Shown here one piece after another: positions 11,754-64,000 of a DNA stretch of 64,000 bases (its first letter is position 1; each line of letters begins with the position of its first letter). Origin of the DNA: Thermoanaerobaculales bacterium. Lineage in GTDB: Bacteria > Acidobacteriota > Thermoanaerobaculia > Thermoanaerobaculales > Sulfomarinibacteraceae. The stretch lies in contig JAZBOQ010000143.1 in the NCBI GenBank assembly GCA_036351195.1, forward strand, positions 29,526-93,525. The letters run 5' to 3'. The translations under genes and the position numbers were made by a program. The notes below the pieces were generated by a model, which was not told where the DNA came from, did no database searches, and was given only the letters and a program-made list of their open reading frames with translations.

Positions 11754-14700
11754 TCAGAGGTCTTTGAGCCCGAGCTTCCTGATCTGGTAGAGCAATCCCT
11801 GCCGCGATATTCCGAGCTCGCGGGCTGCGGCGCTCCGGTTTCCGTGGTGCCGGGCCAGGACCTCGGTGAGGAGTGTTCGCTTGAAGTCTGCCAGGGCGGA
11901 CTCCCACGAGCCTCGCACGGGGCGGTCCGCTTCGGGAATCGGAAGGTCGGCGGGCCGAATCTGCCGTCCCCCCGACCGCGCCATGGCGACCTCGACGGTG
12001 TGCTTGAGTTCCCGCACGTTTCCCGGCCACGAGTGACTCATGAGCATCTCTTCCGCCCGCCGGGACCATGTCGGAACGGGCAGCCCGTAACGCCGAGCCG
12101 CCTCGCGCTCGAAGATCGACCGCAGCACGGGAATGTCCAGCCTCCGCTCCCTCAGGGGCGGCACCTCAATCGTCGCCACCGCCATCCGGTAGTACAGGTC
12201 CTCACGGAATCGCGCCTGTCGCACCCGCCGCTTGAGATTCCGATGGGTGGCGCAGACAACCCGCGTGTCCACCTCCCGGACCTGATCCGATCCCACCGCC
12301 CGAACCTCTCCGGCCTCCATGAAGCGCAGCAATTTCACCTGCAGGGTCGCGTCCAGATCTCCGACCTCATCCAGGAAGAGGGTTCCTCCGTCGGCCGCCG
12401 CCACCAATCCTCTCCGGTGCCGATCGGCGCCGGTAAACGCCCCCTTGACGGCTCCGAAGAGCTCGGACTCCAGGAGGTTGCCAGGAATCGCTGCGACGTT
12501 GACGCAGACCAGATCGCCGGTTCGCCCGGAGAGGCGGTGGATTTCCCGCGCGACGATCTCCTTGCCGGAACCGGTCTCTCCGTGGATCAGCAGATTGAAG
12601 CTCGGGCCCGCCACCCGGAGAATCTCGCTCCTGAGACGTTCCGCGGCCGGCGAACCGCCGTCAATTCTCACCACTTCTTCCGAAGGCTCGGAAATCTCGA
12701 CTCCCTGGGTGGGCGCCAACAGGCTCAGAACATCGAGGAAGAGGTCCCAGGCCGGGCCAGGCAGTGGTTCGAAGCCCAGCGGGATCACCTCGAAGCCGCC
12801 TCGGCTCATGCCCCCGACGGGCCGCCCTTCACCGATGGCCAGGAGATCCCGGCCGCGGGCCGCCTCTCTCACCACGAGGCCGGTGACTCCGAGGGCTTCG
12901 AGCAGCCCCCCGGGGACCTGTTTCTGCAGGGTCCCCAGTCTCTGGCCGCGGATCACCTCCGACAGCGCCCGGTGAAACCCGTCCGCCTCTTCCGGGCCCC
13001 ACCGCATCCGCGACGCCCAACCGTCGATTCCGCAGTCGGACAGCACCCGCGCAGCCCGTTGACGGAGCCTGGAGGGCGGCCAACCCGGCCGGACGGCAAG
13101 CTCGCGGCACAACGCCACTGCCATGCCGTCCTTGAGGTCCAGCGGCCGTTCATCCCACGCCACCGCCCGGCTGTGCCGCAGCTCGACGGCCAGGGCAGCC
13201 GCCCGGCGGACTCCCCAACCGTCCTCTCCGCTCATGCCCGAAGGAATCTCGCCGACCAGCTCAAGCCATGCCTTTCCTTCCTCACCTCCTCGAGCCAGGA
13301 GAGACGTCGCGTCGGCTGTGCAGCCGTCGAACAGAGCTTCGACTCCCCGCAGCAGAAAAATCGCCTGGGCAATCTGTTCGTCGGCGCCGTCTTCCACCGC
13401 CGGAAGCTCTCCGAGACGTCGACGAAAGTCTTCCAAGTGCCCGGCCGCCAAAGCCAGCCGCACTCGCTCCACCTCTTCGAAGATCGAGGTCTCTAGCGCG
13501 CCCAAGCGGTCGAGACGCCGGGCGGCGCGTCTGAGGCGGAGCTGGTCGATGTCGGCCACCGCGAGGTTGTGCAGAGCAACCCATTCGCGGTGACGAAAAC
13601 CGGCCACCTGGAAGAGGCGATAAGCCCCGAGAGTCAACCGCTCAGAAACCGCAGGCCGCCCGAGTTCGCCTTCCACCAGCCCGAGGTTGACCTGCATCGA
13701 CGCCATTCGACCGGGAGCGCCCTCCCGGTCAATCAAGCGGCGCAGCAGTCGTCTCGCGAGAAGGTACTGACGATCCAGGATCGCTCGTGATGCGCGCTCG
13801 AAGAGCAGCAGGCCCTCGAGCTCGGGATGGCCGTCGGCAACCTCCTTTCGCCATTGACGGTCGTTCAGCCGCTCCGGTTTCATCCGCGCGGCGAATCGAA
13901 TGTCGATCCATCTTCGGGAAGGGCCGTGCAGTCGCTCCATGGCCTCGGTAATCACCACCACGGAGCGGCCCGCAGCTTCTGCGGACCGACCGACGCTCCT
14001 TCTCAGCGCAACCAGTGCGATCTCGGCACAGGCGCGCGGGGCGTGGCGCACGTCGATCGGTTGCGGGAGGGGAACCTCGCCCTGGGGCGTGCGATCCAGC
14101 AGTCGAAGCCAGTCGCGCCACGGGCCGGCGATCTCCCGGTCCATCCCTTTCAGGGCTCTGCGGGCGCCGGCAGCATCGGCCAGGCTCAGACACGCCTCGG
14201 CGTGGGCCGCCTGGACGCCGGATCCCAGCGCTCCCGCCTCGACCTCCTGCAGCAGGTCGCGAACCGCCGCCGCATCGAGATCGTCGAGCCGACTCCGCGC
14301 CCAGGTGAGAACCTCACCGGCGTTGCCCACCGCCAGACCACGGTGAAGCATGCCCTGCGGGGAGTCGGTCGGGAAGACTGCGGCAACCTCGGAGTGCAGG
14401 GGATCGACCTTCATCGAGGCTGCTTCGGGCAACATCAGCCGCCCGTCTCTGACCAGGACCGACTGCCCTTCGACGGCTGCGGCAAGCTCTTTGTCGGATG
14501 CCCCCGCCAGCTCCCTGCCGAGATCTTCCGGAATGCCCTCCGGAGCCAGACTCGCGACCCGGACCAACCGGGTGAAACGTTGTGTGGGTCGAGTCTTTTG
14601 GGCCTCGAAAAGCCGTCTTGCCGATTCCGTCAAACGACCGCGGTCAGCCGAGGACAAGGGGTCGAAACGTCCCTTCAACTCGTCGATGATGCGCTGTCGT

Positions 14701-15566
14701 CGCACCGGCCGAACGCCGACGATGCCGAGATGTGCCGCAAGACGCCCTGGATTGAAGAGCCGAAACGGGCGTGCGTTCCAACCACCCGGAAACGCCCCCA
14801 GCCCAACCGTCGCCACCGTCCCCGTCCCGCTCCGATCCACCAAAGAGGCAGCGCTCTCCGCGTCGAAGGACCCGGCGGCGACACGCACCCGGTCCGACCC
14901 CTCCGCCGCGGCCACCGTTACAGCCTCGGCGCCGTCGGTGGTCATCTCCAGGGTCGCTCCCCGGCCGGCGCGAGCCGCTGCGGCCCACAGCGAGGCTCCG
15001 AGTCTGCGCGCCAACCCCAGGTCGGCCACGTCCACCAACCGGGCATCCCCCGGGTCCGGCAAGGGCGGCGCCGACCACCGCCACATCCACAACGACCGAG
15101 CCGTCGCAATATCCAGGGGCGCTTCCAACCTTTCCAGAAGCTGGGCCAGGGCGCCGTCGAGAAAAAAGCCGGGCTCGAGGCCTCGGCGGCCGCCTGCCGC
15201 GGGCTCCACGCCGGTCACCTCGACGACGGCCTCGATCACCGCTCCCCGGGTCGCCCGAGCCGCTTCCTCGCCTCCCCCGAGCCGCGACCAGACCGCCGGG
15301 AGGGAGACCGGGAGGGCCGGAAGCCTGAGCACGAAACCGTCGCCCGTGGCCACGACCGATGCCGATGCGAGAGCCCGCCGGCCGGGCCAGAGCTCGGCAT
15401 CGCCCAGCAGGGAGCTCACCGCGACCATCTGGACTGCGATCCGACGCCGCTGCTCCGGGTCCAAATCGGCGACGGAAACCGCCTCGGCGCCGGGCTCACA
15501 GCCCTCGAAGGGCTGCGGCAAGGCCGGATGTTCAATCAGGAGCGACCGCGGAAGGGGCGGTCTCAC
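11754..15566 (-). CDS. sigma-54-dependent transcriptional activator with ~900-aa N-terminal region of unknown function
   Basis: C-terminal AAA+ region (LLIHGETGSGKE, GAFTGA, LFLDEVGDL, HSWPGNVRELKH) and Fis-type HTH (AAARELGISRQGLLYQIRKLGL). Start placed at GTG 15566, overlapping the aroA stop (GTGA), because the track ORF (to 15845) overlaps aroA. Confidence 0.8.
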   Translation of the reverse strand: MRPPLPRSLLIEHPALPQPFEGCEPGAEAVSVADLDPEQRRRIAVQMVAVSSLLGDAELWPGRRALASASVVATGDGFVLRLPALPVSLPAVWSRLGGGEEAARATRGAVIEAVVEVTGVEPAAGGRRGLEPGFFLDGALAQLLERLEAPLDIATARSLWMWRWSAPPLPDPGDARLVDVADLGLARRLGASLWAAAARAGRGATLEMTTDGAEAVTVAAAEGSDRVRVAAGSFDAESAASLVDRSGTGTVATVGLGAFPGGWNARPFRLFNPGRLAAHLGIVGVRPVRRQRIIDELKGRFDPLSSADRGRLTESARRLFEAQKTRPTQRFTRLVRVASLAPEGIPEDLGRELAGASDKELAAAVEGQSVLVRDGRLMLPEAASMKVDPLHSEVAAVFPTDSPQGMLHRGLAVGNAGEVLTWARSRLDDLDAAAVRDLLQEVEAGALGSGVQAAHAEACLSLADAAGARRALKGMDREIAGPWRDWLRLLDRTPQGEVPLPQPIDVRHAPRACAEIALVALRRSVGRSAEAAGRSVVVITEAMERLHGPSRRWIDIRFAARMKPERLNDRQWRKEVADGHPELEGLLLFERASRAILDRQYLLARRLLRRLIDREGAPGRMASMQVNLGLVEGELGRPAVSERLTLGAYRLFQVAGFRHREWVALHNLAVADIDQLRLRRAARRLDRLGALETSIFEEVERVRLALAAGHLEDFRRRLGELPAVEDGADEQIAQAIFLLRGVEALFDGCTADATSLLARGGEEGKAWLELVGEIPSGMSGEDGWGVRRAAALAVELRHSRAVAWDERPLDLKDGMAVALCRELAVRPGWPPSRLRQRAARVLSDCGIDGWASRMRWGPEEADGFHRALSEVIRGQRLGTLQKQVPGGLLEALGVTGLVVREAARGRDLLAIGEGRPVGGMSRGGFEVIPLGFEPLPGPAWDLFLDVLSLLAPTQGVEISEPSEEVVRIDGGSPAAERLRSEILRVAGPSFNLLIHGETGSGKEIVAREIHRLSGRTGDLVCVNVAAIPGNLLESELFGAVKGAFTGADRHRRGLVAAADGGTLFLDEVGDLDATLQVKLLRFMEAGEVRAVGSDQVREVDTRVVCATHRNLKRRVRQARFREDLYYRMAVATIEVPPLRERRLDIPVLRSIFEREAARRYGLPVPTWSRRAEEMLMSHSWPGNVRELKHTVEVAMARSGGRQIRPADLPIPEADRPVRGSWESALADFKRTLLTEVLARHHGNRSAAARELGISRQGLLYQIRKLGLKDL

Positions 15567-16834
15567 CGCAGCTCGCCCGAGCCGTCCAGGAGACCCTTCC
15601 ACATGCTCCAGAAGCCGGGGAAGGACTTTCCAACACAATCCGCGTCGTCGAGCTCGAGGCCGCCGGTCGCCAGACCGGCCACCGCCATGGCCATGGCGAT
15701 TCGATGATCCGCTGCCGCCGTCACGGCGACCCGCCGCTTCCGATGCCGGTCCATCGGTCGCACCACTCGGATCTCCCCTTGTTCGCGCTCGATACCAGCT
15801 CCAAGGCGACCGAGGTTCGACAGCATCACCGCCAGCCGATCGCACTCCTTGTGCCGAAGATGGTCGAGCCCGCGAAGCACGGTCCCCGGTGGCCCCGCCG
15901 CGGCCACCACCGCCAATGCCGGAAAGGCGTCAGGAGCGTCCTCGAGACTGGCGTCGAAGGGCCGGTCGGCGGGTCCCCGCACGTCCACGGTTTCGCCAAC
16001 GAAATCGATCGCCACCCCTGCCCGCCGGAGAATCCCGCAGATCGCGCGGTCACCCTGGGCGCTTTCGCCATCCAGGGGTCTGATGCCGACGCGGCCGCCG
16101 GCCACCGCGGCCGCCGCCGCCGGAAAGGCCATGGCGGACCAGTCTCCTTCCACCGCAAAGCTGGTCGGACGGATGCCTCCCGGCTCCACCCGCCATCGAT
16201 TCTCCAAGGCTTCGACGGTTGCGCCGAAGGCGGTCAGAGTCTGCTCGGTCAGATCCAGGTACGGACGCGACGGTACCGTGCCGAGCACCTCGAGATCGAG
16301 GCCGCGGGTCATGAGCGGCGCCGCAAGGAGGAGCGACGAGACGAACTGGGACGAAACTTCGGGCGTGATCCGAAGTTTGCCGCCGGCCAGGCGCCCGCCC
16401 TTCAGCGTCACCGGAAGCCTGCCGTCCCGACTCTCGATGGTCGAACCGAGCTCTCCCAACGCCTCGATGAGCGGCGCCATGGGCCGCTCCCGTAGCCGCG
16501 GGGTTCCGTCCACCGTGAACGACCCCGGCACACAGGCCAACAGGCCGAGAATGAGACGCGAACCGGTCCCCGAGTTGCCGAGGTCGACCCGAATCCGGGA
16601 CACCGTTTCCCGCGGACCGATCCGGATCGAGCTCCCCCACTCCACCGGCCATCCGGCCTGGCGCAGCGCATCGGCGAGGAGCCGAGTGTCTTCACAGTCC
16701 AGCGGCCGCAGGACTTCTCCGCCGTCGGCTGCCGCCGCGGCGATCAGGGCGCGGTTGGTGAGGCTCTTGGACGTCGGAACCCGAACATCAGCGTCGAGGT
16801 TGCCAACCGGGCCGGGAAGAAGGACGGAGTTCAT
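15563..16834 (-). CDS. aroA: 3-phosphoshikimate 1-carboxyvinyltransferase (EPSP synthase)
   Basis: ORF 15563..16834. VPTSKSLTNRALIAAA, LGNSGTGSRL and DHRIAMAMAVAG motifs. Confidence 0.9.
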   Translation of the reverse strand: MNSVLLPGPVGNLDADVRVPTSKSLTNRALIAAAAADGGEVLRPLDCEDTRLLADALRQAGWPVEWGSSIRIGPRETVSRIRVDLGNSGTGSRLILGLLACVPGSFTVDGTPRLRERPMAPLIEALGELGSTIESRDGRLPVTLKGGRLAGGKLRITPEVSSQFVSSLLLAAPLMTRGLDLEVLGTVPSRPYLDLTEQTLTAFGATVEALENRWRVEPGGIRPTSFAVEGDWSAMAFPAAAAAVAGGRVGIRPLDGESAQGDRAICGILRRAGVAIDFVGETVDVRGPADRPFDASLEDAPDAFPALAVVAAAGPPGTVLRGLDHLRHKECDRLAVMLSNLGRLGAGIEREQGEIRVVRPMDRHRKRRVAVTAAADHRIAMAMAVAGLATGGLELDDADCVGKSFPGFWSMWKGLLDGSGELR

Positions 16835-38664: not shown

Positions 38665-38745
38665 GTTAGAAGGTGAGAAAGTCAGAAAGTACGCAGGACT
38701 GGAGCTCCCGAACCTTCTAACTCTCTCACCCTCTCACCTTCTAAC
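38665..38745. terminator. low-GC imperfect long hairpin between convergent genes
   Basis: GTTAGAAGGTGAGA (38665-38678) is the perfect complement of TCTCACCTTCTAAC (38732-38745). A second partial right arm, CCTTCTAAC, lies at 38713-38721. Confidence 0.5.
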
Positions 38746-39358
38746 CCTCGACCCTCGGCGGGACGACAACCCAGAACCATCCGCGCAGGTCGCCCTCGGC
38801 AAAGCCCACCGCCCGGTCGTCCGGGTAGCTCTCCGCGAGGGCGGCAGCCACGGTTGGGTCCAGGGACTCGGCGGGGCCGTGACAGGCCAGGCACGGCGGC
38901 GCGACCCTGATCGGGTGCATCACTCCGAGCTCGCCGGCAGGGCCGCGGAAGTAGGTCTTCTCGCCCGTCGCCTCCGCCACCGTCTGCTCGGCCCATGTCG
39001 GAGCGACGTTGCCGCTGTTGCGGAGCTTGTGGGAGGTTCGGCCGATGCCGAGGTCGTGCTTCTCGGACACGTCGACTGCAACCATCGGTGCGAGATCCCG
39101 GCACACGGTGACCGCTGACGCCGGCCCCCCCGCCTGGAGCTCTTTCTTGAGCTCACCCATGAGGGTGCCTGCCAACTCCTTCTGCGCTGCCTTGGCGCGC
39201 TCGAGCTGACCGACCTCAGTTGCACTCAGATCCGCTTCAGCCACCACCGTCCAGTCGGTTGCGGCCGCGCCCGACGCCACTGAATCGGCGCCCGGATCCC
39301 CCGCACCACATCCCCAGAGCTGCGCCACGCACACCAACACGATTCCGGTTCCTCGCAT
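38741..39358 (-). CDS. DUF3365-like lipoprotein with a c-type haem motif
   Basis: ATG 39358. Lipobox LWGC. Single CxxCH (PPCLACHGP). Overall pattern resembles DUF3365/Tll0287-like haem sensor domains. Confidence 0.65.
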   Translation of the reverse strand: MRGTGIVLVCVAQLWGCGAGDPGADSVASGAAATDWTVVAEADLSATEVGQLERAKAAQKELAGTLMGELKKELQAGGPASAVTVCRDLAPMVAVDVSEKHDLGIGRTSHKLRNSGNVAPTWAEQTVAEATGEKTYFRGPAGELGVMHPIRVAPPCLACHGPAESLDPTVAAALAESYPDDRAVGFAEGDLRGWFWVVVPPRVEG

Positions 39359-39440
39359 CTCAGCCCCCTTTTCCGCCACGTGCCACATTTCACAATCAGC
39401 TCCGATACAATTGTTTTACAAAGCTAATTCACTGATATCG

Positions 39441-54635: not shown

Positions 54636-57600
54636 ATGTCAACACTCGATACCGTTTCGGACCCCTTCGACGAGCTCCTCGAGGCCAACCCGGAGGCCGC
54701 CGCTGCCGAGCTCGCCCGACTCCTCGCCGCCGACACCGATACACGAGAGGCCGCCGACTCGCGCGCGGTTCAGCTCCTCGAGGACCGTCTCATGGGCGAC
54801 GGTCTCCTCGAGCACGTCGACCTCCGTGTTCTCGAAGCGTTGACCCGCCGGGTCACGGATCGTCAGGATCCCGGCAACCTGCGGCCTGACGACGAGCGTC
54901 GATGGGAGGCCTGGTCCCTTCTCGACACGCTTCGGCGTTCCGCACTGCTGGTGCGTATTGCGGCTGCCGATGAGGTGGACCTCTGGGCGGACCTCATCCT
55001 CGATCTCGTCGAGGCCTCCAACTTCACCTTCGGTCCGCTCTTCGAGCAACGGGTCGCCGGTTACGGAGCACAGACCCTCTTCGAATCCGGCGGTAGCCGC
55101 ATCACCTGGCACCAGGCCGCCGGCCGGGTCGGTCTCATCGCCCGCGGACTCCTCGCCTTGACCGCCGAGGACGAGGGTCGGCCGGTGGCCATCCTCTCGG
55201 AGAACTCCCTGGAGATGGCGCTCACCGACCTCGCCTGCCTCACCACGGGGATCGTCAACGTGATGATTCCGGCCACCGCCACCGACACCGAGGTCGGGTA
55301 CATCCTCGGCCACTCGAAGGCCGGAACCGTCATCGTCTCCGGCTCGACCCAGCTGAAGAAAGTGCATGCATGCCGCGCGCGGCTTCCTGAGCTCCGCCGC
55401 GTCGTCACCGTTTCGGCCGCCGACGCCGACGCCAACACCCTCGCCTTCGACGAGGTTCTCCGCCGCGCCACCGAGGTGAGCGCGGAGGAGGTCGGCCACC
55501 GCCGCGCCGCGGTGGCCATCGGCGACATGGCGACGGTCATGTACACCTCCGGCACCACGGGCCGGCCGAAGGGCATTCGATTCTCCCAGCGGAACATTGT
55601 CTTCAAGCGCTTCGCCCGCGCCCTGGCCCTGCCCGAGATCGGCGACGGCGACCGGTTGCTCTCCTACCTCCCTCTCTTCCACACCTTCGGCCGCTTTCTC
55701 GAGCTCTGCGGCAGCATCTTCTGGGGCGCTACCTACCGATTCGCCGAGAGTCCGAACATCGACAGCCTGGTCCGCGAGATGCGGGACTACCGCCCCACGG
55801 TCTTCATCAGCATTCCCATGAAGTGGATGCAGCTGCTCGATCTCATCCGCCGCGATGTCACGCTGGAGTCGGACCCCGACGACGTCATCGCACCCGTGGT
55901 GGAACGGATGACCGGCGGCGCCCTCCGATGGGGGCTTTCCGCCGCCGGCTATCTCGATCCCGAGGTCTTTCGTTTTTTCCAACGGTACGGCGTCGAGCTG
56001 ATGAGCGGCTTCGGCATGACCGAGGCCACCGGCGGCATCACCATGACCCAGCCGGGAGACTACTCGGAGGACTCCCTCGGGACGCCGCTGCCCGGCATCG
56101 AAGCCGCTCTGGCCGACGACGGCGAGCTCATCATGCGGGGACCCTACGTGATGATGGGGTACCTGGACGATCCCGAGGGACGTCCATCCTTCGACGACGA
56201 CGGCTGGTTTCACAGCGGCGATCTCATGGAGCAGAGCGCCGACGGGCACTTCCACATGGTGGACCGCAAGAAAGAGATCTACAAGAACGTCAAGGGTCAG
56301 ACCATCGCCCCCCAAAAAGTGGAGAATCTTTTTCGCGACTTCGACTCGGTGGCCAGAGTTTTCCTCGTGGGGGACCACCGGCCCTTCAACACCCTGTTGA
56401 TCTACCCGAATCACGAGTTCGAGGAGGAGGATCTTTCGGCTCTGGAACCGGAGGAGCTCAAGGCGCACTTTCGCTCACTGGTGGTCAGCGCCAACACCTT
56501 TCTCGCCCCCTTCGAGCGCATCTTGGACTTCGCGATCATCGACCGCGACTTCGACCCCGAACTGGGCGAGCTGACGCCCAAGGGGACCTATCGGCGCAAG
56601 GTCATCGAACGGAACTTCGCCGACTCCATCAAGCTGCTCTACCGCCGGACGACCATCACTGTGGGGAAAATGCCGGTCACCGTGCCCAACTGGCTCTTTC
56701 AGGCGATGGGCATCACCTCCCAGGAGCTCACGGTCGAGGGCGACGAGCTCAGTCTCGGCAGCGTCGGTGAACCGATCTCCATTCGGGCCATGGAAGACAG
56801 CGAGGTTCGAGTGGGATCGGTGCACTACCGACACAGCGAACGGGTACCGCTTCCCCTCGGGCTCATCCTCTCCACTCCCTCCCTGTGGCTCGGCAACGAC
56901 GAGGCGGTTCGCTTCGCGCCGCTGGACATGGAGCATCGCGACCGCCGGCGCCACCGACTCACGGGTCTCGAGTGGTTGCACCGGGACAGCACCCACCACG
57001 TCACCGACGAGGAGATCGCAGCCGCCACCGAAGCCCTGGCGAGCGACGAGATCGGGCTTCTGGAGCTTCACCTCGCCTCGCTTCTGCTCAACGCCGATCA
57101 CGCCGAGGCGGGCCGCACCGCCGTCCGAATCCTCGATCGGGTGTTGCAGCAGGGAGAAGGAGAGCTGACCGGAATCGTGCTCAAGCTCCTCCGCCACGCC
57201 GCCGCCGGCGCCCTCCCCGAGGTGGTTCGAGAGGCGTTTCTGGTTCTCATCTTCACCGAGCGTCCAGCGCAGTTCTCCGCCACCCTTCGCGCTTTCGTGG
57301 ACGCCGAACCAGAGCTCTTCGACGACGCCACCGCAGCGTCCCTCATCGAGCACGAGCTGCCGCCGGAGACCATCGGCGCTCTGGTGTCCGAAGCCGAGCG
57401 CCGGATGAGTGCCGGCGACCCCACCGCGGGCTCCATTTTAGGTTTTCTCGCCGAATACGGCGCCCTCCACCCGGCCCGCTACCGCCAGCTCCGCGCCTTC
57501 CTGACGCGCATGGCCGTAACCTCCGACGATCCTGGCGATGCCGATCGCGCCCGCCGGTCCCTGGAACGTCTCAACGACGGCTTTCGGACCTGGCTCGGGC

Positions 57601-59360
57601 CGCCGTCGCGAATCGCCATCGATCCTGAGACCGGCCTCGAGTACCGGTGGGACGACGTGGTCGGCTTCGATGATGAGGTGGACGACGAGGCGCGACGACG
57701 CATCATGGCTGCCATCAAGAGCACCACCCTCGTGCGCGAGGGGGTCTTTCTGTTTTCCCACGGCATTTCCGTCCGTTTGGACGACATTCTTCCCGGCGGG
57801 ATCTGGGTCCGCCATCTCGGATCCGGACACGGTAAGTCGGTCTTCCGGGTTGACATTCGCACCCGAAACCGAGGCCAGTACGATCTCGCCGTGAACCTCA
57901 ACCGAGATCTCGACGAGCGCGCCGTCACCGAGGAGATCGACTGGCTCGTGATCTGCGCCGAGGATCGTGACCTCGGCCCCCTTGTCGAGGACTACGGCGG
58001 CTACTGGCCAGAGCACGGACTCTGGTCCGAGGAGTTCATCCCCGGCGAGACCCTCGACCGAAGCATCCTGCGCCTCTCGCGCCCGGAGCCCGACCGGGAT
58101 CGGCTTGAGGCGCTGTGGCCCTTCGCCGCGTGGAGCGCCATGTCGGCCTACGTGGATTTCTGGAATCGAACCGGCCGTCGTCTGGTGGTTTCCAAACCCT
58201 CGCCCGGCAATGTCATCGTTCCCACTCACGACTACCACACCGGAGCGCGGCTGGTCTCCATCGCGGATCGCAGTCCGTTTGCCGGCCTGCCCGCCCTGCT
58301 CGAAAGCCTCCGTCGCGAGCTCATCTCACCGGTGGAGTCCGCCGTGCCACTCCTCGAAGGTGTGGTGGGGTGGGACGTGGTCTTCTCCTCCCTGCTCGAG
58401 ATCGTCGGTGAGCACGAGGGCCGCGAGCTCCTTTCAGGAGTTCTCGAGCACGCCTTGGCTGAAGGACGCGAGTACGCGGAAGAGCTGGCGAACTACCTCG
58501 AGGTGGTGGCGCTCCGGGGCTTCCTCCCCCGCCGGCTGTTCTTCGCCGCCAAGCGATTCCGCACCTGGGACCGTCTCGCTCCGGATGCGACCCACACCGT
58601 GCGGGCGCGGACGCTGCGGGAGCTCTATGAGACATACCGTCTGGAAGATCTCCGAGGAACCTATCCCGAGAGCCGGGCACGCTTCTTCCGCGAAACCGTC
58701 CTCCGCGACGCCCCCGACACTCTGGCGGCGGGCCTTGAAGAGATCATCACCGGGTTGCGTCGGGGCGATCTTCCGGTGGAGGAGCTGAGCTCGGCGGTGG
58801 CCGACCTCAGAGCCCACCTCGACCTCCCCGCCGAGTACGACTTCTTCCTCGCTCGGCTCTCCTACCCCTACCTCAGGCCCGAGACGGACGCGGTCTACGT
58901 CGACGCGATCAGCAGCGGCGTACAACGAAGCGAGATGGTGGTCACCTTCGAGGATCCGGACGGCCACCCCTACCGAATCCGCCACGCGCTGAATCCCAAA
59001 GAGATCGCTCGACTCCACCGGCTGTCATTGGCCGCCCGGCTGCCGGTTCAGTTTCGACCGGAGCACCGATTCCTGGTCGCCGTCTCGGACCGAGGCCACC
59101 TCCTCGGCGGTCTCTACTACGAGGTCGAGACCGAGGCGCAGACTGCGCACATGGACAAGGTCGTCGTGGCCGAGAGCGCCCGCGGCAAGGGCGTCGCCAG
59201 CAACCTCCTCGAGGAGCTCTTCAACCGCCTTCGGGTGGAGGACTACCGCTGGTTGACCACCGGGTTCTTCCGGCCCCAGTTCTTCTACCGGTTCGGCTTC
59301 AAGGTCGAGAGGCGGTACGCTGGTCTGGTTCGATCGCTGGAACACGAGGACGGAGAGTAA
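54636..59360 (+). CDS. 1574-aa fusion: AMP-forming long-chain acyl-CoA ligase-like domain, long unknown middle region, C-terminal GNAT acyltransferase
   Basis: ORF 54636..59360. Adenylation motifs YTSGTTGRPKG, GFGMTEATGG, WFHSGD and LTPKGTYRRK. C-terminal GNAT motif A (VVAESARGKGVASNLLEELFNRL). Confidence 0.85.
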   Translation: MSTLDTVSDPFDELLEANPEAAAAELARLLAADTDTREAADSRAVQLLEDRLMGDGLLEHVDLRVLEALTRRVTDRQDPGNLRPDDERRWEAWSLLDTLRRSALLVRIAAADEVDLWADLILDLVEASNFTFGPLFEQRVAGYGAQTLFESGGSRITWHQAAGRVGLIARGLLALTAEDEGRPVAILSENSLEMALTDLACLTTGIVNVMIPATATDTEVGYILGHSKAGTVIVSGSTQLKKVHACRARLPELRRVVTVSAADADANTLAFDEVLRRATEVSAEEVGHRRAAVAIGDMATVMYTSGTTGRPKGIRFSQRNIVFKRFARALALPEIGDGDRLLSYLPLFHTFGRFLELCGSIFWGATYRFAESPNIDSLVREMRDYRPTVFISIPMKWMQLLDLIRRDVTLESDPDDVIAPVVERMTGGALRWGLSAAGYLDPEVFRFFQRYGVELMSGFGMTEATGGITMTQPGDYSEDSLGTPLPGIEAALADDGELIMRGPYVMMGYLDDPEGRPSFDDDGWFHSGDLMEQSADGHFHMVDRKKEIYKNVKGQTIAPQKVENLFRDFDSVARVFLVGDHRPFNTLLIYPNHEFEEEDLSALEPEELKAHFRSLVVSANTFLAPFERILDFAIIDRDFDPELGELTPKGTYRRKVIERNFADSIKLLYRRTTITVGKMPVTVPNWLFQAMGITSQELTVEGDELSLGSVGEPISIRAMEDSEVRVGSVHYRHSERVPLPLGLILSTPSLWLGNDEAVRFAPLDMEHRDRRRHRLTGLEWLHRDSTHHVTDEEIAAATEALASDEIGLLELHLASLLLNADHAEAGRTAVRILDRVLQQGEGELTGIVLKLLRHAAAGALPEVVREAFLVLIFTERPAQFSATLRAFVDAEPELFDDATAASLIEHELPPETIGALVSEAERRMSAGDPTAGSILGFLAEYGALHPARYRQLRAFLTRMAVTSDDPGDADRARRSLERLNDGFRTWLGPPSRIAIDPETGLEYRWDDVVGFDDEVDDEARRRIMAAIKSTTLVREGVFLFSHGISVRLDDILPGGIWVRHLGSGHGKSVFRVDIRTRNRGQYDLAVNLNRDLDERAVTEEIDWLVICAEDRDLGPLVEDYGGYWPEHGLWSEEFIPGETLDRSILRLSRPEPDRDRLEALWPFAAWSAMSAYVDFWNRTGRRLVVSKPSPGNVIVPTHDYHTGARLVSIADRSPFAGLPALLESLRRELISPVESAVPLLEGVVGWDVVFSSLLEIVGEHEGRELLSGVLEHALAEGREYAEELANYLEVVALRGFLPRRLFFAAKRFRTWDRLAPDATHTVRARTLRELYETYRLEDLRGTYPESRARFFRETVLRDAPDTLAAGLEEIITGLRRGDLPVEELSSAVADLRAHLDLPAEYDFFLARLSYPYLRPETDAVYVDAISSGVQRSEMVVTFEDPDGHPYRIRHALNPKEIARLHRLSLAARLPVQFRPEHRFLVAVSDRGHLLGGLYYEVETEAQTAHMDKVVVAESARGKGVASNLLEELFNRLRVEDYRWLTTGFFRPQFFYRFGFKVERRYAGLVRSLEHEDGE

Positions 59361-59361
59361 C

Positions 59362-60264
59362 GTGAAGAGAACGCTGCTGACTCGGTCATCGCTGGTTTTC
59401 GACAGTCTCGAGGCGAGGTGGGAGACCCTTTCCACCCAGCGCTGGGTCGCATCCGTGCTCACCTTCGTCTTTCTCGTCGGGATGCTCATCATTGAAGCCA
59501 ACCGCCGTGGCTGGTTTCCCCGAGGCCTCTCCGAACACATCCCGTACAAGCATTTCGACGCTATCCTGTGGGCCTTCACCCTGCTGCTGCTGGCCGAGGT
59601 GGTATCGCTGATTTTCGCGTTGGCGAAATCGGTGGCGACCGCCGTCGGCAAGCAGCTCGAGATCATGTCGCTGATCCTGGTCCGGCAGTCGTTCAAGGAG
59701 TTGACCACGTTCTCCGAGCCCATCGAGTGGTCCGACACGGTTCAGAAACAAGTGCTCTATATCCTCTCGGACGCCTTCGGGGCGTTGGTCATCTTCGCGC
59801 TGCTGGTGCTCTTCACGCGTCTCCAGCGCCACCAGCCGATCAGCAACGACGATGCCGAGCGCACGAGCTTCATTGCCGCCAAGAAGCTCGTGTCCCTGCT
59901 GCTCCTGGCGAGTCTGGCGGTGATCGGCCTCCATGTCGTCCTGAGCTGGCATGGTGGCATCATTCCGGGAACCCTGTTCAACGCCTTCTCAGACGACTTC
60001 TTCGAGATCTTCTACACCTTGCTCATCTTCGCCGACGTCCTGCTGGTCCTCATCTCCATGCGGTACACCATCGCCTACACCATCGTCTTTCGCTACTTCG
60101 GCTTTGCGGTGGCCACCGTCCTCATCCGACTCGCCCTGACCGCCCCGCGCTTCATCGACGCCGGGCTCGGCATCACCGCCGCCCTCTTCGCCGTCGGTCT
60201 GACCTGGATCTTCAACCTCGGCGCGGCCGCCTCCGAAGCGCCGGAACACCACGGCAGCGGCTGA
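59362..60264 (+). CDS. polytopic integral membrane protein, unknown function
   Basis: GTG 59362 lies 1 nt after the TAA of the giant gene and is preceded by AGGACGGAGAG. About 7-8 hydrophobic spans. Confidence 0.65.
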   Translation: MKRTLLTRSSLVFDSLEARWETLSTQRWVASVLTFVFLVGMLIIEANRRGWFPRGLSEHIPYKHFDAILWAFTLLLLAEVVSLIFALAKSVATAVGKQLEIMSLILVRQSFKELTTFSEPIEWSDTVQKQVLYILSDAFGALVIFALLVLFTRLQRHQPISNDDAERTSFIAAKKLVSLLLLASLAVIGLHVVLSWHGGIIPGTLFNAFSDDFFEIFYTLLIFADVLLVLISMRYTIAYTIVFRYFGFAVATVLIRLALTAPRFIDAGLGITAALFAVGLTWIFNLGAAASEAPEHHGSG

Positions 60265-60497: not shown

Positions 60498-60530
60498 AGA
60501 CACGCCCCGCGGGGGGCGTGTTCGTTCTCG
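60498..60530 (-). terminator. intrinsic terminator of the multihaem cytochrome gene
   Basis: Minus-strand sense CACGCCCC-CCGC-GGGGCGTG followed by TCTCTTTTT, 15-45 nt after the stop at 60545. Confidence 0.7.
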
Positions 60531-60544
60531 TTGACCCGTCAGGT

Positions 60545-63500
60545 CTATCGGTAGCCGAAGACCATGGTGTAGACGATCAGGAAGATCAGCGTGAGCCCGA
60601 TCCCGAGAGCGGTGAAACCGATGATCTTGGCCGCCTTATCAATCCAGGGCTTGGCTGGGCCCTTGACCCGTCCACCGAAGTCTTCCCCACGCCGCCCGTG
60701 GAAGAACTCCTCGTACTCGCGCGGTTTGTCGTGCTTGAGCTCATCCAATGGAACACGGCCGGTGAAAATCACCGGGTCCATGGGGAACTTGTCGGGCCGG
60801 AAGTGGGTGTTGAAGAAGTGGATGGTGAAGATGAACCCCACCGCCAGGAGCGCCTCGTCCGAGTGGACAATGGTCGCGACGTTGACCGACCAGCCGGGCA
60901 GGAACCGAGTGAAGAACTCGGGGAACCAGAGCACCAGGCCGGTGGAGCCGATGATGAAGTTGCCCCAGAAGACCGCGAAGTAGTCGAACTTCTCCCAGTA
61001 GGTGAAGCGGCCGTAGTGGGGACGCGGCCCGCGACCCAGGAACCACTTGGCGCTCTGCCAGAACTGCGTGATGTCCGTGAGGTTGAACATCAGCGAGTTG
61101 GGTCCGAAGATGAATCGGATCCAGCTGTCGCTCGACGCCCGTTTGATCTTGACGAGATCGACCAGGTGGTACGCGAAGAGGGTCAGCAGCGCGACGCCGG
61201 CGATGCGGTGGAGCGTGCCCATCGTGGCGTAGCCGCCGAGGATCTGCGTCAGGTAGTGCGCCCAGGTCATGAACGAGAACTTCAACGCCATTCCCGACAG
61301 TGCCAGCGTGAAGAAGCTCAGGATCATGATGAAGTGCATGATCCGCTGCTTCGAGGTAAAGCGGATGTAGAAACGGTCCTCCTTGTGCGCCTCTTCGCGG
61401 ATCGGCATCCACACCTCGCGGGTCCGCCACAGTCGGAAGAGCCACAGCAGGGTGTGGAGCAGGAAGAAGCTCAGCGTGCCGACGAGCAGAATGGTCATGA
61501 ACCAGAAGGAGTAGAAGAGAAACGGGTATTTGTCCTTGTCGTGGTGCGTGGCGTGGCTCAGGTATCCGGCGAACTGGAGGTGGGCCCGTGGGTGGCACTG
61601 ACCGCAGGTCTCCACGACGTGGATCTTGCTCAGCGACGAGTCCGGGTTGTCGGAGGGAAGGATGTTGTGCGTTCCGTGGCAGTCGTAGCACTTGGCAGCG
61701 CCTTCCGAACCGAGGTTGGTGACCTTGCCGTGATAAGTGTCGAAGAAGGTCTCCGCGAAGTCCTCGTGGCAGTGGCCGCACTGGTCCATCATCATGAACC
61801 GGAAGCCCTGGGCGTCGATGCGGCTGATCTCGTGCGAGGTGTGGCAGCTCTCGCAGGTCGGGAGCTCGTCGTTGGTCACCACATTGTCCTTATGGTGGAT
61901 GCTGGCGCGGAACTCTTCCTCGATGCCCTTGTGGCAGCTGCCGCACATGTCGAGCACGTTGTCCTGGTGAACCGTCGAGCGCGGGTCCTCCTGGGGCAGC
62001 GCCTTGTGTGCCGTGTGGCAGTCGACACAGCTGGCGGAGACCACGAGCCCGCTGCCCATGAGTCCGCGTCCGTGGGTACTTTCCAGGTAGCTGGCGACGA
62101 TGTCCCGATCATCGTCGAGGCGCGCCGCAGCCGGCGCTCCGGCGGCGTGGCAGCTGCCGCAGAGCTCGGGGACGTTTCGTGAGTAGGTCGGCGAGGTCGG
62201 CAGGCGATACCCGAGGGTCGCGTGGGAATCGCCGTGGCACGTGGCGCAGGTCGGCGCGTCGGGATCCCCTTCGGCCGCGAGCTCCCCGTGGCGGCTCAGT
62301 ACCTGCTCCTGCACCTGCTCCGCGTGACAGATGCTGCAGTCCACCGGTGTGGTGATGGTGGCGCAGGCCCGCTCCGGGTGATTCGGATTCACCTCGGTGT
62401 GGCACTGGGCGCAGGCGGTGCGCGAGTGCGACGACAGGCCAAAGGCCTGCTCGTCCACCCAGAGAGAGATCAGCTCACCATCCCGTTCGACCTCGAGCGC
62501 GGGATCCGCGTGGCACTCGAGACAGCTCTGGGACGTCGCCTCCTGATAGGTCACCGGCCGGCGCCGGATTTCGTGGGGTTGGTGGCACTCCACACAGGAC
62601 GGCACCTTGTGCGGCTCCTCTTCCCAGAGCCGCCCCTCGACGACCTTGACGTGGACTTCTTCGATGCGGGCGTGGCATTTCATGCAGGTCTGGGCCACGT
62701 TCGCACGATTGATGCTCGAGGCCGGGTTGTTGTGATCGAGAATGTTGTGCGCCGTGTGGCACGAGGTGCAGACCGCGGTAACGGTGAGGCCCTTGAGGAA
62801 CAGGCCCTCTCCGTGCACCGACATGGAGAAGTTCTCCAGAATGCGGTCCTGATCGATGTCGTGCTGGAGCGTGACCTCGGTGCCTTCGCGGTGGCACCGG
62901 CCGCAGAGCAGCGGAATGTGTTGGGTTGCCGTGGGCGAGGCCGGATCGTCGGCGGGTTTGATGTCGTGGTGGTCGTGACAGAAGATGCAGTTCGGCGCCG
63001 CAGGGTCGCCCTTGACGGCGGCGCGGCCGTGCAGGGAGCCGCGGTGCTGCTGCGCCACGTCTTGGTGGCAGTCGCCGCAGGCCTCGAGCTGGGCCAGCGG
63101 CTCGGTCGGGGCGGTGACGTTGTGGCCGTGGTGGCAGTCCGCGCAGCTCGCTGCGGGAGCGTCGCCGAGCATGCGGCCGTGCGGACTTCCCGACACCTCA
63201 CGCAGGTCCGAGGCGTGGCACCGTGCGCACAGGTCGTTGACTCGACTCCGGGCCGTCCTGGCCTCCGGATCGATGTCCGCTCGGACGTCGTGGACGCCGT
63301 GGCAGCTGGCACAGGCGACCGACGGCGACGACGGATCCGAGGCCCACTTACCGTGAGGGCCGATTGCCATGTCCTCGGCGACGTCGTCGTGGCACATGCC
63401 GCAGTCCACCGCTTCCAGCTCATCCTCATGGGGCAATTCGGCGCCGTCGAGGTCCATGTGGCAGTCAATGCAGGCGAAATCCGCATGGACCGATGCCGCG

Positions 63501-63691
63501 TAGGCGTCCGGATCGACGTACACGGAAATCTCGTTACCCGCCCGTTGCCCTTCGAGCTCGGGATCCTCGTGGCACATGAAGCAGTCGTCGTTCTCCTGCG
63601 CCCCCAGGGGTGCGGCCGCGACTGCGACCAACGCCGTGAGAAGCACGATCCAGATCTGCCAAGAGACCTCGCAGCCCTCGAAATGCCTCAT
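60545..63691 (-). CDS. 23-haem c-type cytochrome fused to a C-terminal cytochrome b-like membrane domain
   Basis: SD AAGGAG plus ATG 63691 and a signal/anchor segment WQIWIVLLTALVAVAAAPLGA. I count 23 CxxCH motifs. The C-terminal ~330 aa has about 6 TMs and conserved-looking His residues (RIMHFIMILSFF, TLHRIAGVALL, IVHSDEALLAVGFIFTIHFFNTHF). Confidence 0.9.
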   Translation of the reverse strand: MRHFEGCEVSWQIWIVLLTALVAVAAAPLGAQENDDCFMCHEDPELEGQRAGNEISVYVDPDAYAASVHADFACIDCHMDLDGAELPHEDELEAVDCGMCHDDVAEDMAIGPHGKWASDPSSPSVACASCHGVHDVRADIDPEARTARSRVNDLCARCHASDLREVSGSPHGRMLGDAPAASCADCHHGHNVTAPTEPLAQLEACGDCHQDVAQQHRGSLHGRAAVKGDPAAPNCIFCHDHHDIKPADDPASPTATQHIPLLCGRCHREGTEVTLQHDIDQDRILENFSMSVHGEGLFLKGLTVTAVCTSCHTAHNILDHNNPASSINRANVAQTCMKCHARIEEVHVKVVEGRLWEEEPHKVPSCVECHQPHEIRRRPVTYQEATSQSCLECHADPALEVERDGELISLWVDEQAFGLSSHSRTACAQCHTEVNPNHPERACATITTPVDCSICHAEQVQEQVLSRHGELAAEGDPDAPTCATCHGDSHATLGYRLPTSPTYSRNVPELCGSCHAAGAPAAARLDDDRDIVASYLESTHGRGLMGSGLVVSASCVDCHTAHKALPQEDPRSTVHQDNVLDMCGSCHKGIEEEFRASIHHKDNVVTNDELPTCESCHTSHEISRIDAQGFRFMMMDQCGHCHEDFAETFFDTYHGKVTNLGSEGAAKCYDCHGTHNILPSDNPDSSLSKIHVVETCGQCHPRAHLQFAGYLSHATHHDKDKYPFLFYSFWFMTILLVGTLSFFLLHTLLWLFRLWRTREVWMPIREEAHKEDRFYIRFTSKQRIMHFIMILSFFTLALSGMALKFSFMTWAHYLTQILGGYATMGTLHRIAGVALLTLFAYHLVDLVKIKRASSDSWIRFIFGPNSLMFNLTDITQFWQSAKWFLGRGPRPHYGRFTYWEKFDYFAVFWGNFIIGSTGLVLWFPEFFTRFLPGWSVNVATIVHSDEALLAVGFIFTIHFFNTHFRPDKFPMDPVIFTGRVPLDELKHDKPREYEEFFHGRRGEDFGGRVKGPAKPWIDKAAKIIGFTALGIGLTLIFLIVYTMVFGYR

Positions 63692-63889
63692 CACGTCTCC
63701 TTCCGGAGAAACAATATCGCTGAACAGTGAAATACTCAAGTCATCCACTCGCCCTTAAATTGCGTACTGATCTCAATTTACAAGCGCCTCCTTGTCAAAA
63801 CCGCCGCTTCGCCCGAGCTGTCTAAAAGGACCTTTTTCTGAATTGAACGCGGTGGTAAAGTAGCGCTTTACGAGAAAGAAACGGACACC

Positions 63890-64000
63890 ATGAACTGGAT
63901 CGATCAAAACCTCGACGCCTACCGTGTCATCGCCGAGATTCTCACCGATCTGCGCCCCCTCGTTCGAGAGCGCCTGGAGGCCGCCCACGGCAAGGAGTGG
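63890..64000 (+). CDS. 5' end of a hypothetical gene running off the window
   Basis: ATG 63890 opens MNWIDQNLDAYRVIAEILTDLRPLVRERLEAAHGKEW with no stop before the window end. Divergent from the cytochrome gene. Confidence 0.4.
   Translation, partial: MNWIDQNLDAYRVIAEILTDLRPLVRERLEAAHGKEW

Follow-up and report, generated by a model that had tools for sequence, protein, structure and literature searches.

Few gates are known between the quinone pool and electron acceptors outside the cell. CbcL-type proteins are among them, and the 9-haem protein of Geobacter is the only one of these to have been studied. In G. sulfurreducens CbcL (GSU0274, 619 residues), a Sec signal is followed by a multihaem c domain and by six transmembrane (TM) helices with an FdnI/HydC-like cytochrome b, and its function as a low-potential menaquinol oxidase and donor to PpcA has been established by genetics and biochemistry. 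Its nine c haems have been measured as low-spin and bis-His, and its c domain reduces PpcA (PMC9129911). The fusion architecture recurs in MtoC and ‘MtrH’ (Rhodoferax ferrireducens Rfer_4073, 662 residues, 9 haems), the latter a name also given to an unrelated MtrC-family outer-membrane cytochrome (PMC8805035), and in 11-haem paralogues. A survey by Zhong & Shi (2018) found CbcL/MtrH/MtoC homologues in 15 phyla, with lengths of 416–1034 residues and 3–23 CX2CH motifs, mostly with six TM helices and conserved candidate b-haem histidines, and with 28.6–100% identity to the reference proteins (PMC6295460). Here we analysed a 64,000-nucleotide stretch of a Thermoanaerobaculales contig (JAZBOQ010000143.1; hereafter the window), which carries on its minus strand a gene for a 1048-residue cytochrome with 23 haem c motifs. 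The protein has the same order of parts as CbcL, and it is probably an inner-membrane bc-type cytochrome of the CbcL/MtoC family (‘MtrH’ in the sense of Zhong & Shi).

Domain architecture and family placement

The periplasmic c domain (residues 32–733; 61493..63598, minus strand), delimited by motif positions, Pfam matches, internal repeats and a module map, holds exactly 23 CxxCH motifs at residues 37–696, the count that an earlier note on this DNA had made within about 700 periplasmic residues. This amounts to about 30 residues per haem, and the domain has 60 histidines in total. Shuffling the residues of the same protein gave 0.16 CxxCH on average and 3 at most, and only two further motifs occur in the remainder of the window together with the five other frames. 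The paired-CxxCH context described in the note is borne out as well: eight of the 23 motifs read CxxCHxxHx[IVLA], and Pfam Paired_CXXCH_1 matches six stretches of the domain (E 1.4e-19), with further Pfam matches to c7, c3 and MtrC-domain families. As at least 21 non-motif histidines are invariant in the homologue alignment, plus three nearly so, there are enough of them for bis-His ligation of 23 haems. In profile searches against the PDB, the nearest solved relatives of the c domain were 28pb_A (a 278-residue ‘cytochrome c’), the haem core of HAO, NrfB (2ozy) and GSU1996 (3ov0); none of the CbcL-type proteins has a solved structure. The best NCBIfam match was TIGR03508 (DmsE/MtrA), with residues 96–343 aligned to profile positions 4–251 of 258 at 96.2 bits against a cut-off of 192.2. 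With a score below the cut-off, this match reflects shared modules, not membership. Paired-CXXCH and NrfB-like modules are indeed common to MtrA/DmsE and the window protein, but the former have 10 haems and are inserted in a porin, whereas the latter has 23 and is anchored through its cytochrome b.

The remaining residues, 734–1048 (60548..61492, minus strand), form the membrane domain, assigned from PF01292, TIGR01583, the alignment to E. coli FdnI (1kqf chain C), Foldseek, invariant histidines and TM helices. A linker TM helix precedes a four-helix FdnI/HydC-like dihaem core, which is followed by a C-terminal TM helix. The note had described a C-terminal part of about 330 residues with about six TM helices resembling FdnI/HydC-type dihaem cytochrome b. 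Hydropathy places six helices at 734–752, 784–802, 830–848, 905–923, 939–957 and 1023–1041, the AlphaFold2 model reproduces six long helices, and the loop charges agree with the positive-inside rule. In the profile search of the C-terminal domain that the note had proposed, the formate dehydrogenase gamma profile TIGR01583 (FdnI) matched at E 6.6e-10, with 39.3 bits against an equivalog cut-off of 115.85. Many homologues carry a precomputed match to PF01292 (Ni_hydr_CYTB), and the domain is best described as a divergent member of that superfamily. A sequence search of the PDB recovered FdnI at E 5e-4, and in a Foldseek search with the full-length model 1kqf_C was the sole strong match (probability 1.00; template modelling score 0.76 normalised to FdnI; root-mean-square deviation 3.8 Å), the next relevant one being the hydrogenase-1 (Hyd-1) cytochrome b 4gd3_A with a score of 0.50.

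All four axial histidines of FdnI (His18, His57, His155 and His169) align to histidines of the window protein (His786, His828, His943 and His958). No variation at these four positions or at His842 occurs in alignments of 31 and of 52 homologues, and the 11-haem paralogues retain them; a lack of conserved b-haem ligands, which the note had named as grounds for dropping its reading, was thus not observed. From the alignment, His786 and His958 are putative ligands of a haem b on the cytoplasmic side, and His828 and His943 of one on the periplasmic side. Although the four-helix fold and its ligands are common to both proteins, FdnI is a separate 217-residue subunit fed by the iron–sulfur clusters of FdnH, sequence identity is about 20%, and the b domain in the window is flanked by an additional TM helix at either end and is part of one polypeptide with a multihaem c domain. 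The most conserved motif of the family, the invariant TYWEKFDY (residues 897–904), lies at the cytoplasmic end of the fourth helix and aligns to FdnI residues 110–117, part of the menaquinone/2-heptyl-4-hydroxyquinoline N-oxide (HQNO) pocket by the cytoplasmic-side haem, which makes it a lead for a possible quinone-site segment.

Three features that unite the CbcL/MtrH/MtoC family are present: an N-terminal periplasmic CX2CH domain, its 23 motifs falling within the reported range of 3–23; a C-terminal half with six TM helices whose spacing parallels GSU0274 (starts at 734, 784, 830, 905, 939 and 1023, compared with 285, 351, 399, 477, 511 and 589 in CbcL); and a HydC/FdnI-like dihaem b domain with conserved histidines. 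Several 9-haem proteins of 615–654 residues have CxxCH spacing very near that of GSU0274. One of them, P0154 (617 residues, nine CxxCH), was used as a proxy for CbcL; its motif spacing is 23, 25, 24, 26, 28, 31, 40 and 28, against 23, 25, 23, 24, 29, 28, 43 and 28 in GSU0274. BLASTP aligned the window protein to P0154 over 515 residues (E 2e-108, 36% identity), taking in the last six haems and the entire b domain. We file the protein in this family because of its similarity to P0154, its TM spacing and the 23-motif homologue of the published survey. It differs from CbcL in having 23 haems instead of 9, more than twice the number as the note had said, and in the spacing of the first part of its c domain. 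The long clade keeps His842 and His963 without exception; in the CbcL-layout proxy, His842 is not conserved. With the group of MtoC, ‘MtrH’ and the 11-haem paralogues it shares the last three pre-membrane spacings (25, 30, 28) exactly, but has 12 to 14 extra N-terminal haems. By contrast, it is unlike the NapC/NirT/CymA/NrfH proteins, in which a single N-terminal TM anchor carries a tetrahaem domain: PF03264 gave no match, and TIGR03153 gave 19.8 bits against 134.2, over a stretch of 40 residues.

The note had called this an expanded CbcL architecture. The expansion is real, and it was already on record: Table S2 of the 2018 survey lists GBD91784.1 (‘bacterium BMS3Abin04 fdoI’, 1034 residues, 23 motifs, six TM helices; PMC6295460), so the 23-haem architecture was known at that time and is not new. 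That protein comes from a different organism and is on record solely through its row in that table and as the top of the range given. Its motifs (28, 65, 88, 118, 146, 175, 197, 227, 255, 300 ... 686) follow the spacing of the window protein with an offset of 8–10 residues, and by this register it is evidently an orthologue in the same 23-haem clade. Searches of the literature on CbcL in the phyla concerned, and on Zixibacteria RBG-1, returned nothing relevant.

Module composition and spread of the long clade

Successive motif distances in the c domain are 37, 23, 30, 28 / 28, 22, 30, 28 / 45, 28, 30, 24 / 37, 25, 30, 29 / 44, 28, 30, 25 / 30, 28, and 4-haem segments aligned pairwise (local alignment) score 9 to 38 standard deviations over shuffles. 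Haems 1–13 can be aligned along their length with haems 13–23. To place the modules, we aligned the protein jointly with 11-, 19- and 21-haem relatives. The 11-haem paralogues correspond, column for column, to haems 13–23 plus the b domain. In the 19-haem forms, which have four motifs fewer, haems 3–7 are unmatched in the alignment, one of the five being an off-register motif; the 21-haem forms are without haems 5–6, and the 23-haem forms of four phyla have all motif positions in common. Insertions among haems 3–7 distinguish the 19-, 21- and 23-haem forms from one another. By this module map, which is new here, the c domain consists of repeated 4-haem modules, and the best explanation of the long c domain is that it arose through tandem addition of such modules to an 11-haem core. 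The 1005-residue protein P0134 has 22 CxxCH in an exact tandem doubling of the 11-haem unit, and therefore long c domains arose at least twice. In a separate observation on the 11-haem proteins, the 1126-residue P0186 joins an N-terminal half of response-regulator/sigma-54-activator type to an 11-haem bc-cytochrome, a fusion that may be an artefact of gene calling or assembly.

A word-indexed protein search returned 2989 relatives; almost every one of the top 120 was full length, and the lowest identity among these was 47%. Independent assemblies (JGI, ENA, NCBI and Logan) supply over 100 full-length homologues with 53–84% identity to the window protein, and one relative on a 94.7-kb JGI contig is 100% identical; 30 chosen homologues from the 53–84% range make up alignment A1. 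Among the named sources are Thermoanaerobaculales, Gemmatimonadetes, Planctomycetota, Kiritimatiellaeota and Methylomirabilota. At least 596 loci were confirmed when a single genome for each GTDB species was scanned; taxa are described here for the best 80, all of them metagenome-assembled genomes (MAGs). Among these best 80, Acidobacteriota are represented by Thermoanaerobaculia, Candidatus Sulfomarinibacteraceae, Holophagae, Bryobacterales and Solibacter, and they are joined by Gemmatimonadota, Woeseiaceae, Zixibacteria, Eisenbacteria, Krumholzibacteriia, KSB1, Calditrichota, Ignavibacteriales, Bacteroidota, Myxococcota, Akkermansiaceae, Phycisphaerae and several others. The nearest species representatives among the matches listed have 71–72% identity (Thermoanaerobaculales, Sulfomarinibacteraceae), by which the window itself very probably derives from one of the Thermoanaerobaculia.

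When the b domain (residues 715–1048) was searched with HMMER against 1.84 billion cluster representatives, 2393 matched at E<=1e-3 and 415 at E<=1e-30, and the full-length ones form a continuum of CxxCH counts (9, 10, 11, 13, 15, 17, 18, 19 and 22). In a sample of 84 orthologous loci, 19 haems are commonest, with 21 in nine loci, 22 in one and 23 in 11. The b domains of orthologues and of the paralogues that adjoin them fall into separate clades, with E-values of 1e-92 to 1e-136 and about 1e-25 to 1e-40, respectively. A rough neighbour-joining tree of the b domains alone, drawn without support values, places the 23-haem proteins of Acidobacteriota, Gemmatimonadota, Kiritimatiellaeota, Marinimicrobia and an FCB-group MAG contiguously, and 21-haem forms in three places or more. 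By this tree, the 23-haem form seems to have originated once and to have passed between phyla, and a 2-haem unit to have been gained or lost repeatedly.

The gene, its flanking signals and its neighbours

The ORF list gives a single long minus-strand open reading frame at 60545..63748, with a GTG start at 63748 and its stop codon at 60545–60547. JGI calls the GTG as the start, for a product of 1067 residues. The first in-frame ATG, at 63691, gives 1048 residues, in agreement with homologue lengths of 1044–1059, and both this ATG and its Shine–Dalgarno (SD) sequence are retained in the closest relative, locus L085; we therefore annotate the coding sequence as 60545..63691 (minus strand). The SD-like GGAAGGAG (63697..63704, minus strand), which the note had assigned to this gene, stands 5 nucleotides before the ATG and is identical in L085. 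A signal peptide spans residues 1–31 (63599..63691, minus strand), with a hydropathy peak of 2.32 at residues 13–31 marking its hydrophobic core. Signal peptidase would be likely to cleave after PLGA and before QEND; the family consensus just N-terminal of haem 1 is ...AQxNxDC.

Flanking genes are convergent on one side (59362..60264, plus strand) and divergent on the other (from ~63888, plus strand), so by geometry the cytochrome gene is monocistronic, in line with the note. The note had also named a clear terminator. A terminator-like GC-rich hairpin followed by the T-rich CTCTTTTTCG (60500..60521, minus strand) lies 24 nucleotides past the stop codon, in a form that reads as a hairpin on either strand, between the convergent genes. 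Because the terminator scan gave 3 sites for the region where 2.1 are expected, the hairpin counts as evidence only through its position after the stop. The string TTGACA-N17-TGAGAT (63798..63770), which the note had called promoter-like, is present. A scan with the sigma-70 consensus called no promoter, only three of the six positions of TGAGAT agree with TATAAT, and L085, the nearest relative, has unrelated bases in place of TTGACA; we rejected TTGACA as evidence of a −35 element on the empty scan and the missing conservation. What is conserved is a 29-nucleotide block, GTAAATTGAGATCAGTACGCAATTTAAGG (63753..63781, minus strand), 27 of whose 29 positions are identical in L085 (5908–5936), in intergenic DNA that is otherwise poorly conserved between the two. 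It holds TGAGAT and an inverted repeat, AAATTG-N11-CAATTT (63757–63779), which occurs once in the window (0 expected) and was not found in the other 84 loci. The block may serve one gene of the divergent pair as the core of its promoter or as an operator.

Across the 84 loci, a further cytochrome frame with at least five haems lies within 8–10 kb in 55, and a second, shorter bc-cytochrome with 9–13 haems in 30. About 25 loci encode a membrane cytochrome of ~490 residues with a NapC/NirT-like N-terminal part, whose motifs at 141 (CX3CH), 166, 215, 325, 442 and 463 reproduce the spacing of all but the last haem of ImcH (GSU3259; 132, 156, 205, 311, 428, 448 and 486). Orthologues thus often adjoin an 11–13-haem paralogue and an ImcH-like cytochrome, an association that is new here. 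In other Thermoanaerobaculales, the ImcH-like gene lies divergently upstream of the 23-haem gene (L001, L002, L005, L006 and L013); in several MAGs of the order, such as L001 (6675–9758), genes for the ImcH-like protein, with 5–6 haems, and for a CoA_binding_2 protein stand between the 23-haem gene and a gene for a 362-residue protein. In the window (63888–64000, plus strand) and in L085 (4681–5800) the homologue of that 362-residue protein (MNWIDQNLDAY...) abuts directly, and the CoA-binding gene is missing from this position together with the ImcH-like one, which points to lineage-specific loss or relocation of both. What lies past the window end was judged from the relatives L001, L002 and L085, as an exact-sequence look-up of P0001 gave no record.

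Like mtoC and mtrH, some orthologues stand in MtrCAB clusters. In the Woeseiaceae MAGs L022 and L026, the 19-haem orthologue adjoins a full MtrCAB outer-membrane conduit, scored against NCBIfam cut-offs as MtrB/PioB (377 bits, cut-off 240), MtrA/DmsE (282, cut-off 192; in L022 this true TIGR03508 member adjoins the orthologue) and MtrC/OmcA (480, cut-off 209). Both also hold a PdsA-like dihaem cytochrome, an 11-haem paralogue and an ImcH-like gene. Sediment Woeseiaceae have independently been noted with mtrCAB (PMC12175321), and this association is the best available evidence for an involvement of the clade in extracellular electron transfer. As an observation in its own right, 1226–14113 of L022 (CAZTQL010000001.1) make up a complete candidate electron-export cluster within 13 kb.

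Other genes of the window are of different kinds. On the 60-kb side, it encodes peptidases, secreted ones included, a sigma-54 activator, a Ser/Thr kinase, and thiamine pyrophosphate-dependent (TPP) and GMC oxidoreductases. The activator (1363 residues; 11754–15845, minus strand) ends in AAA+ and Fis-type helix-turn-helix domains, and roughly 1000 of its N-terminal residues have no Pfam match at E<=1e-5. The sole other gene of the window with a CxxCH encodes a 215-residue Tll0287-like protein (PF11845, E 1.3e-12; 38741–39388, minus strand) with one haem c motif. Next to the cytochrome gene, a 1574-residue protein (54636–59360, plus strand) combines an AMP-binding part (acyl/aryl-CoA ligase-like, residues 136–671) with a GNAT part (1470–1556), separated by ~800 residues without a Pfam match. 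Its stop codon overlaps by 1 nucleotide (GAGTGA) the start of the gene, convergent with the cytochrome gene, for a 300-residue polytopic membrane protein (59362–60264, plus strand), which has no Pfam match. The 300-residue gene neighbours orthologues in 3 of the 84 loci and the 1574-residue gene in 7, close relatives only. We rejected a functional tie of these two genes to the cytochrome, the neighbourhood being synteny between close relatives.

Electron flow and alternative roles

Taken together with the biochemistry of CbcL, the architecture is consistent with a quinol oxidase that sends electrons outwards. Sec would export the N-terminal domain, and haem would be attached at the 23 CxxCH sites. 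The linker helix would return the chain to the cytoplasm, and the FdnI-type four-helix bundle, to judge by its alignment and fold, would bind two b haems, one near the cytoplasmic face through His786/His958 and one near the periplasmic face through His828/His943. Menaquinol would be oxidised beside the cytoplasmic-side b haem; for CbcL, the FdnI-type topology implies a quinone site at the cytoplasmic face (10.1101/2022.08.31.506072). The two b haems would carry electrons over the membrane to c haem 23, the CxxCH of which precedes the first TM helix by 38 residues, and from there bis-His c haems would pass them on to periplasmic or outer-membrane cytochromes. With this outward flow the protons of the quinol would be released to the cytoplasm, so that, by analogy with CbcL, the step would dispose of electrons and conserve no energy. 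The ten haems of MtrA span about 80 Å and the 20-haem MtrCAB chain about 185 Å; at full extension, a chain of 23 haems could therefore come close to spanning a periplasm. We do not claim an extended wire of the periplasm-spanning kind that the note had raised, because confidence in the c-domain model is low: the full-length AlphaFold2 model has a predicted local distance difference test (pLDDT) of 65.9 and a predicted template modelling score (pTM) of 0.39, with the membrane domain moderate and parts of the c domain poor. As small periplasmic cytochromes are frequent in orthologous loci, we argue that shuttles would still be used.

Several points weigh against this assignment. Its link to CbcL of G. 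sulfurreducens, strong but indirect, runs through a layout-matched proxy and the published survey, and the 19–23-haem clade is without an experimentally studied member. PF01292 scores 29.9 bits, 0.2 short of its gathering cut-off of 30.1. The 60 kb of the window on one side of the gene hold no other multihaem cytochrome or porin, and the ImcH-like gene is missing from its usual Thermoanaerobaculales position in both the window and L085. Finally, many of the lineages that carry the family, Bryobacterales, Gemmatimonadota and Akkermansiaceae among them, are not known as metal reducers, and therefore one universal role is unlikely.

Among other readings, the 23-haem domain might be less a long wire than a store of electrons, compact or flexible in shape, that buffers the pool of quinones while acceptors come and go and gives electrons to soluble carriers near the membrane. 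Multihaem cytochromes, CbcL and PpcA included, have been described as electron reservoirs (PMC9129911), and the AlphaFold2 model shows no confident extended shape (pTM 0.39). A wire that reached the outer membrane would make a shuttle unnecessary, so the frequent genes for small periplasmic cytochromes, such as the PdsA-like dihaem protein in L022, L026, L034 and L037, count for a store. We nevertheless find this reading rather doubtful, as the module types match cytochromes with linear haem chains (DmsE/MtrA at 96 bits over nearly the whole profile, NrfB 2ozy and GSU1996 3ov0) and haem number changes by whole modules, all inserted at a single point of the chain, as expected if length is selected. 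Alternatively, electrons could run the opposite way, with the protein acting as a quinone reductase, as proposed for MtoC in Fe(II) oxidisers; the pool would then be fed by donors outside the cell or in the periplasm, for instance Fe(II), reduced humics, sulfur species or a syntrophic partner. The FdnI template does run inwards, from a periplasmic donor to menaquinone, as is established for Fdn-N, and flow in that sense would conserve energy; orthologues occur in Woeseiaceae and other lineages of facultative chemolithotrophs; and CbcL/MtrH/MtoC homologues are found both in organisms that reduce Fe(III) and in those that oxidise Fe(II), and their sequences offer no feature by which to tell the directions apart (PMC6295460). 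Inward flow seems unlikely to us, however, because the nearest characterised relative, CbcL, works outwards, because homologues of ImcH, whose like is a frequent neighbour here, are reported only from Fe(III) reducers (PMC6295460), and because the other genes of the window, secreted peptidases included, fit a heterotrophic life better than a lithotrophic one.

Much further from the evidence lies a role as membrane subunit of a formate dehydrogenase or hydrogenase, which we hold to be very improbable. JGI names the product ‘cytochrome b subunit of formate dehydrogenase’, and the b domain does match TIGR01583 and PF01292, but at 39.3 against 115.85 bits for TIGR01583 and 24.5 against 339 bits for PRK10179 it stays far under the equivalog cut-offs. 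Neither in the window nor in L001, L002 and L085 does a gene for a catalytic or iron–sulfur subunit adjoin, and the fused 23-haem domain stands in the place of those subunits. The low scores and the lack of adjacent catalytic genes therefore make the product name misleading. That the gene is an assembly chimera, as the note had allowed, or a decaying pseudogene that joins unrelated cytochrome genes, has a next to negligible probability. Only its unusual length raises the question, and we found nothing in support; the full-length architecture stands on hundreds of independent contigs. An identical protein lies on the 94.7-kb JGI contig, the full-length homologues at 53–84% identity exceed 100, species-representative loci number at least 596, and the frame is uninterrupted, with a GC content at third codon positions (GC3) of 0.87 and all motifs conserved.

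A bolder form of the outward reading, which we regard as speculative and improbable as a whole, would make the 19–23-haem clade a single-polypeptide bridge from the quinone pool to outer-membrane conduits that needs no shuttle. In it, insertions of 2 and 4 haems (giving 11, 19, 21, 23 and, independently, 22) would tune length to the periplasm, and the 23-haem version would have spread between phyla as a unit. If true, hundreds of lineages in sediments and soils, belonging to more than a dozen phyla, would share a major way of extracellular electron transfer that has been overlooked.

The gene in the window is itself a clean and typical case of the 23-haem sub-clade, has no visible partners there, and serves as an example rather than a discovery. 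New here are the map of the modules, the finding of how large the long clade is and how widely it is spread among phyla, and its recurrent company of paralogue, ImcH-like and, in some lineages, MtrCAB genes. The 19–23-haem versions form a large, well-conserved clade in Acidobacteriota, Gemmatimonadota, Woeseiaceae, Zixibacteria, Bacteroidota, Verrucomicrobiota and others. This clade offers a marker gene for the potential of abundant, uncultured bacteria in sediments to respire metals or electrodes, and its series of haem counts is a natural length series for how far one polypeptide carries electrons.

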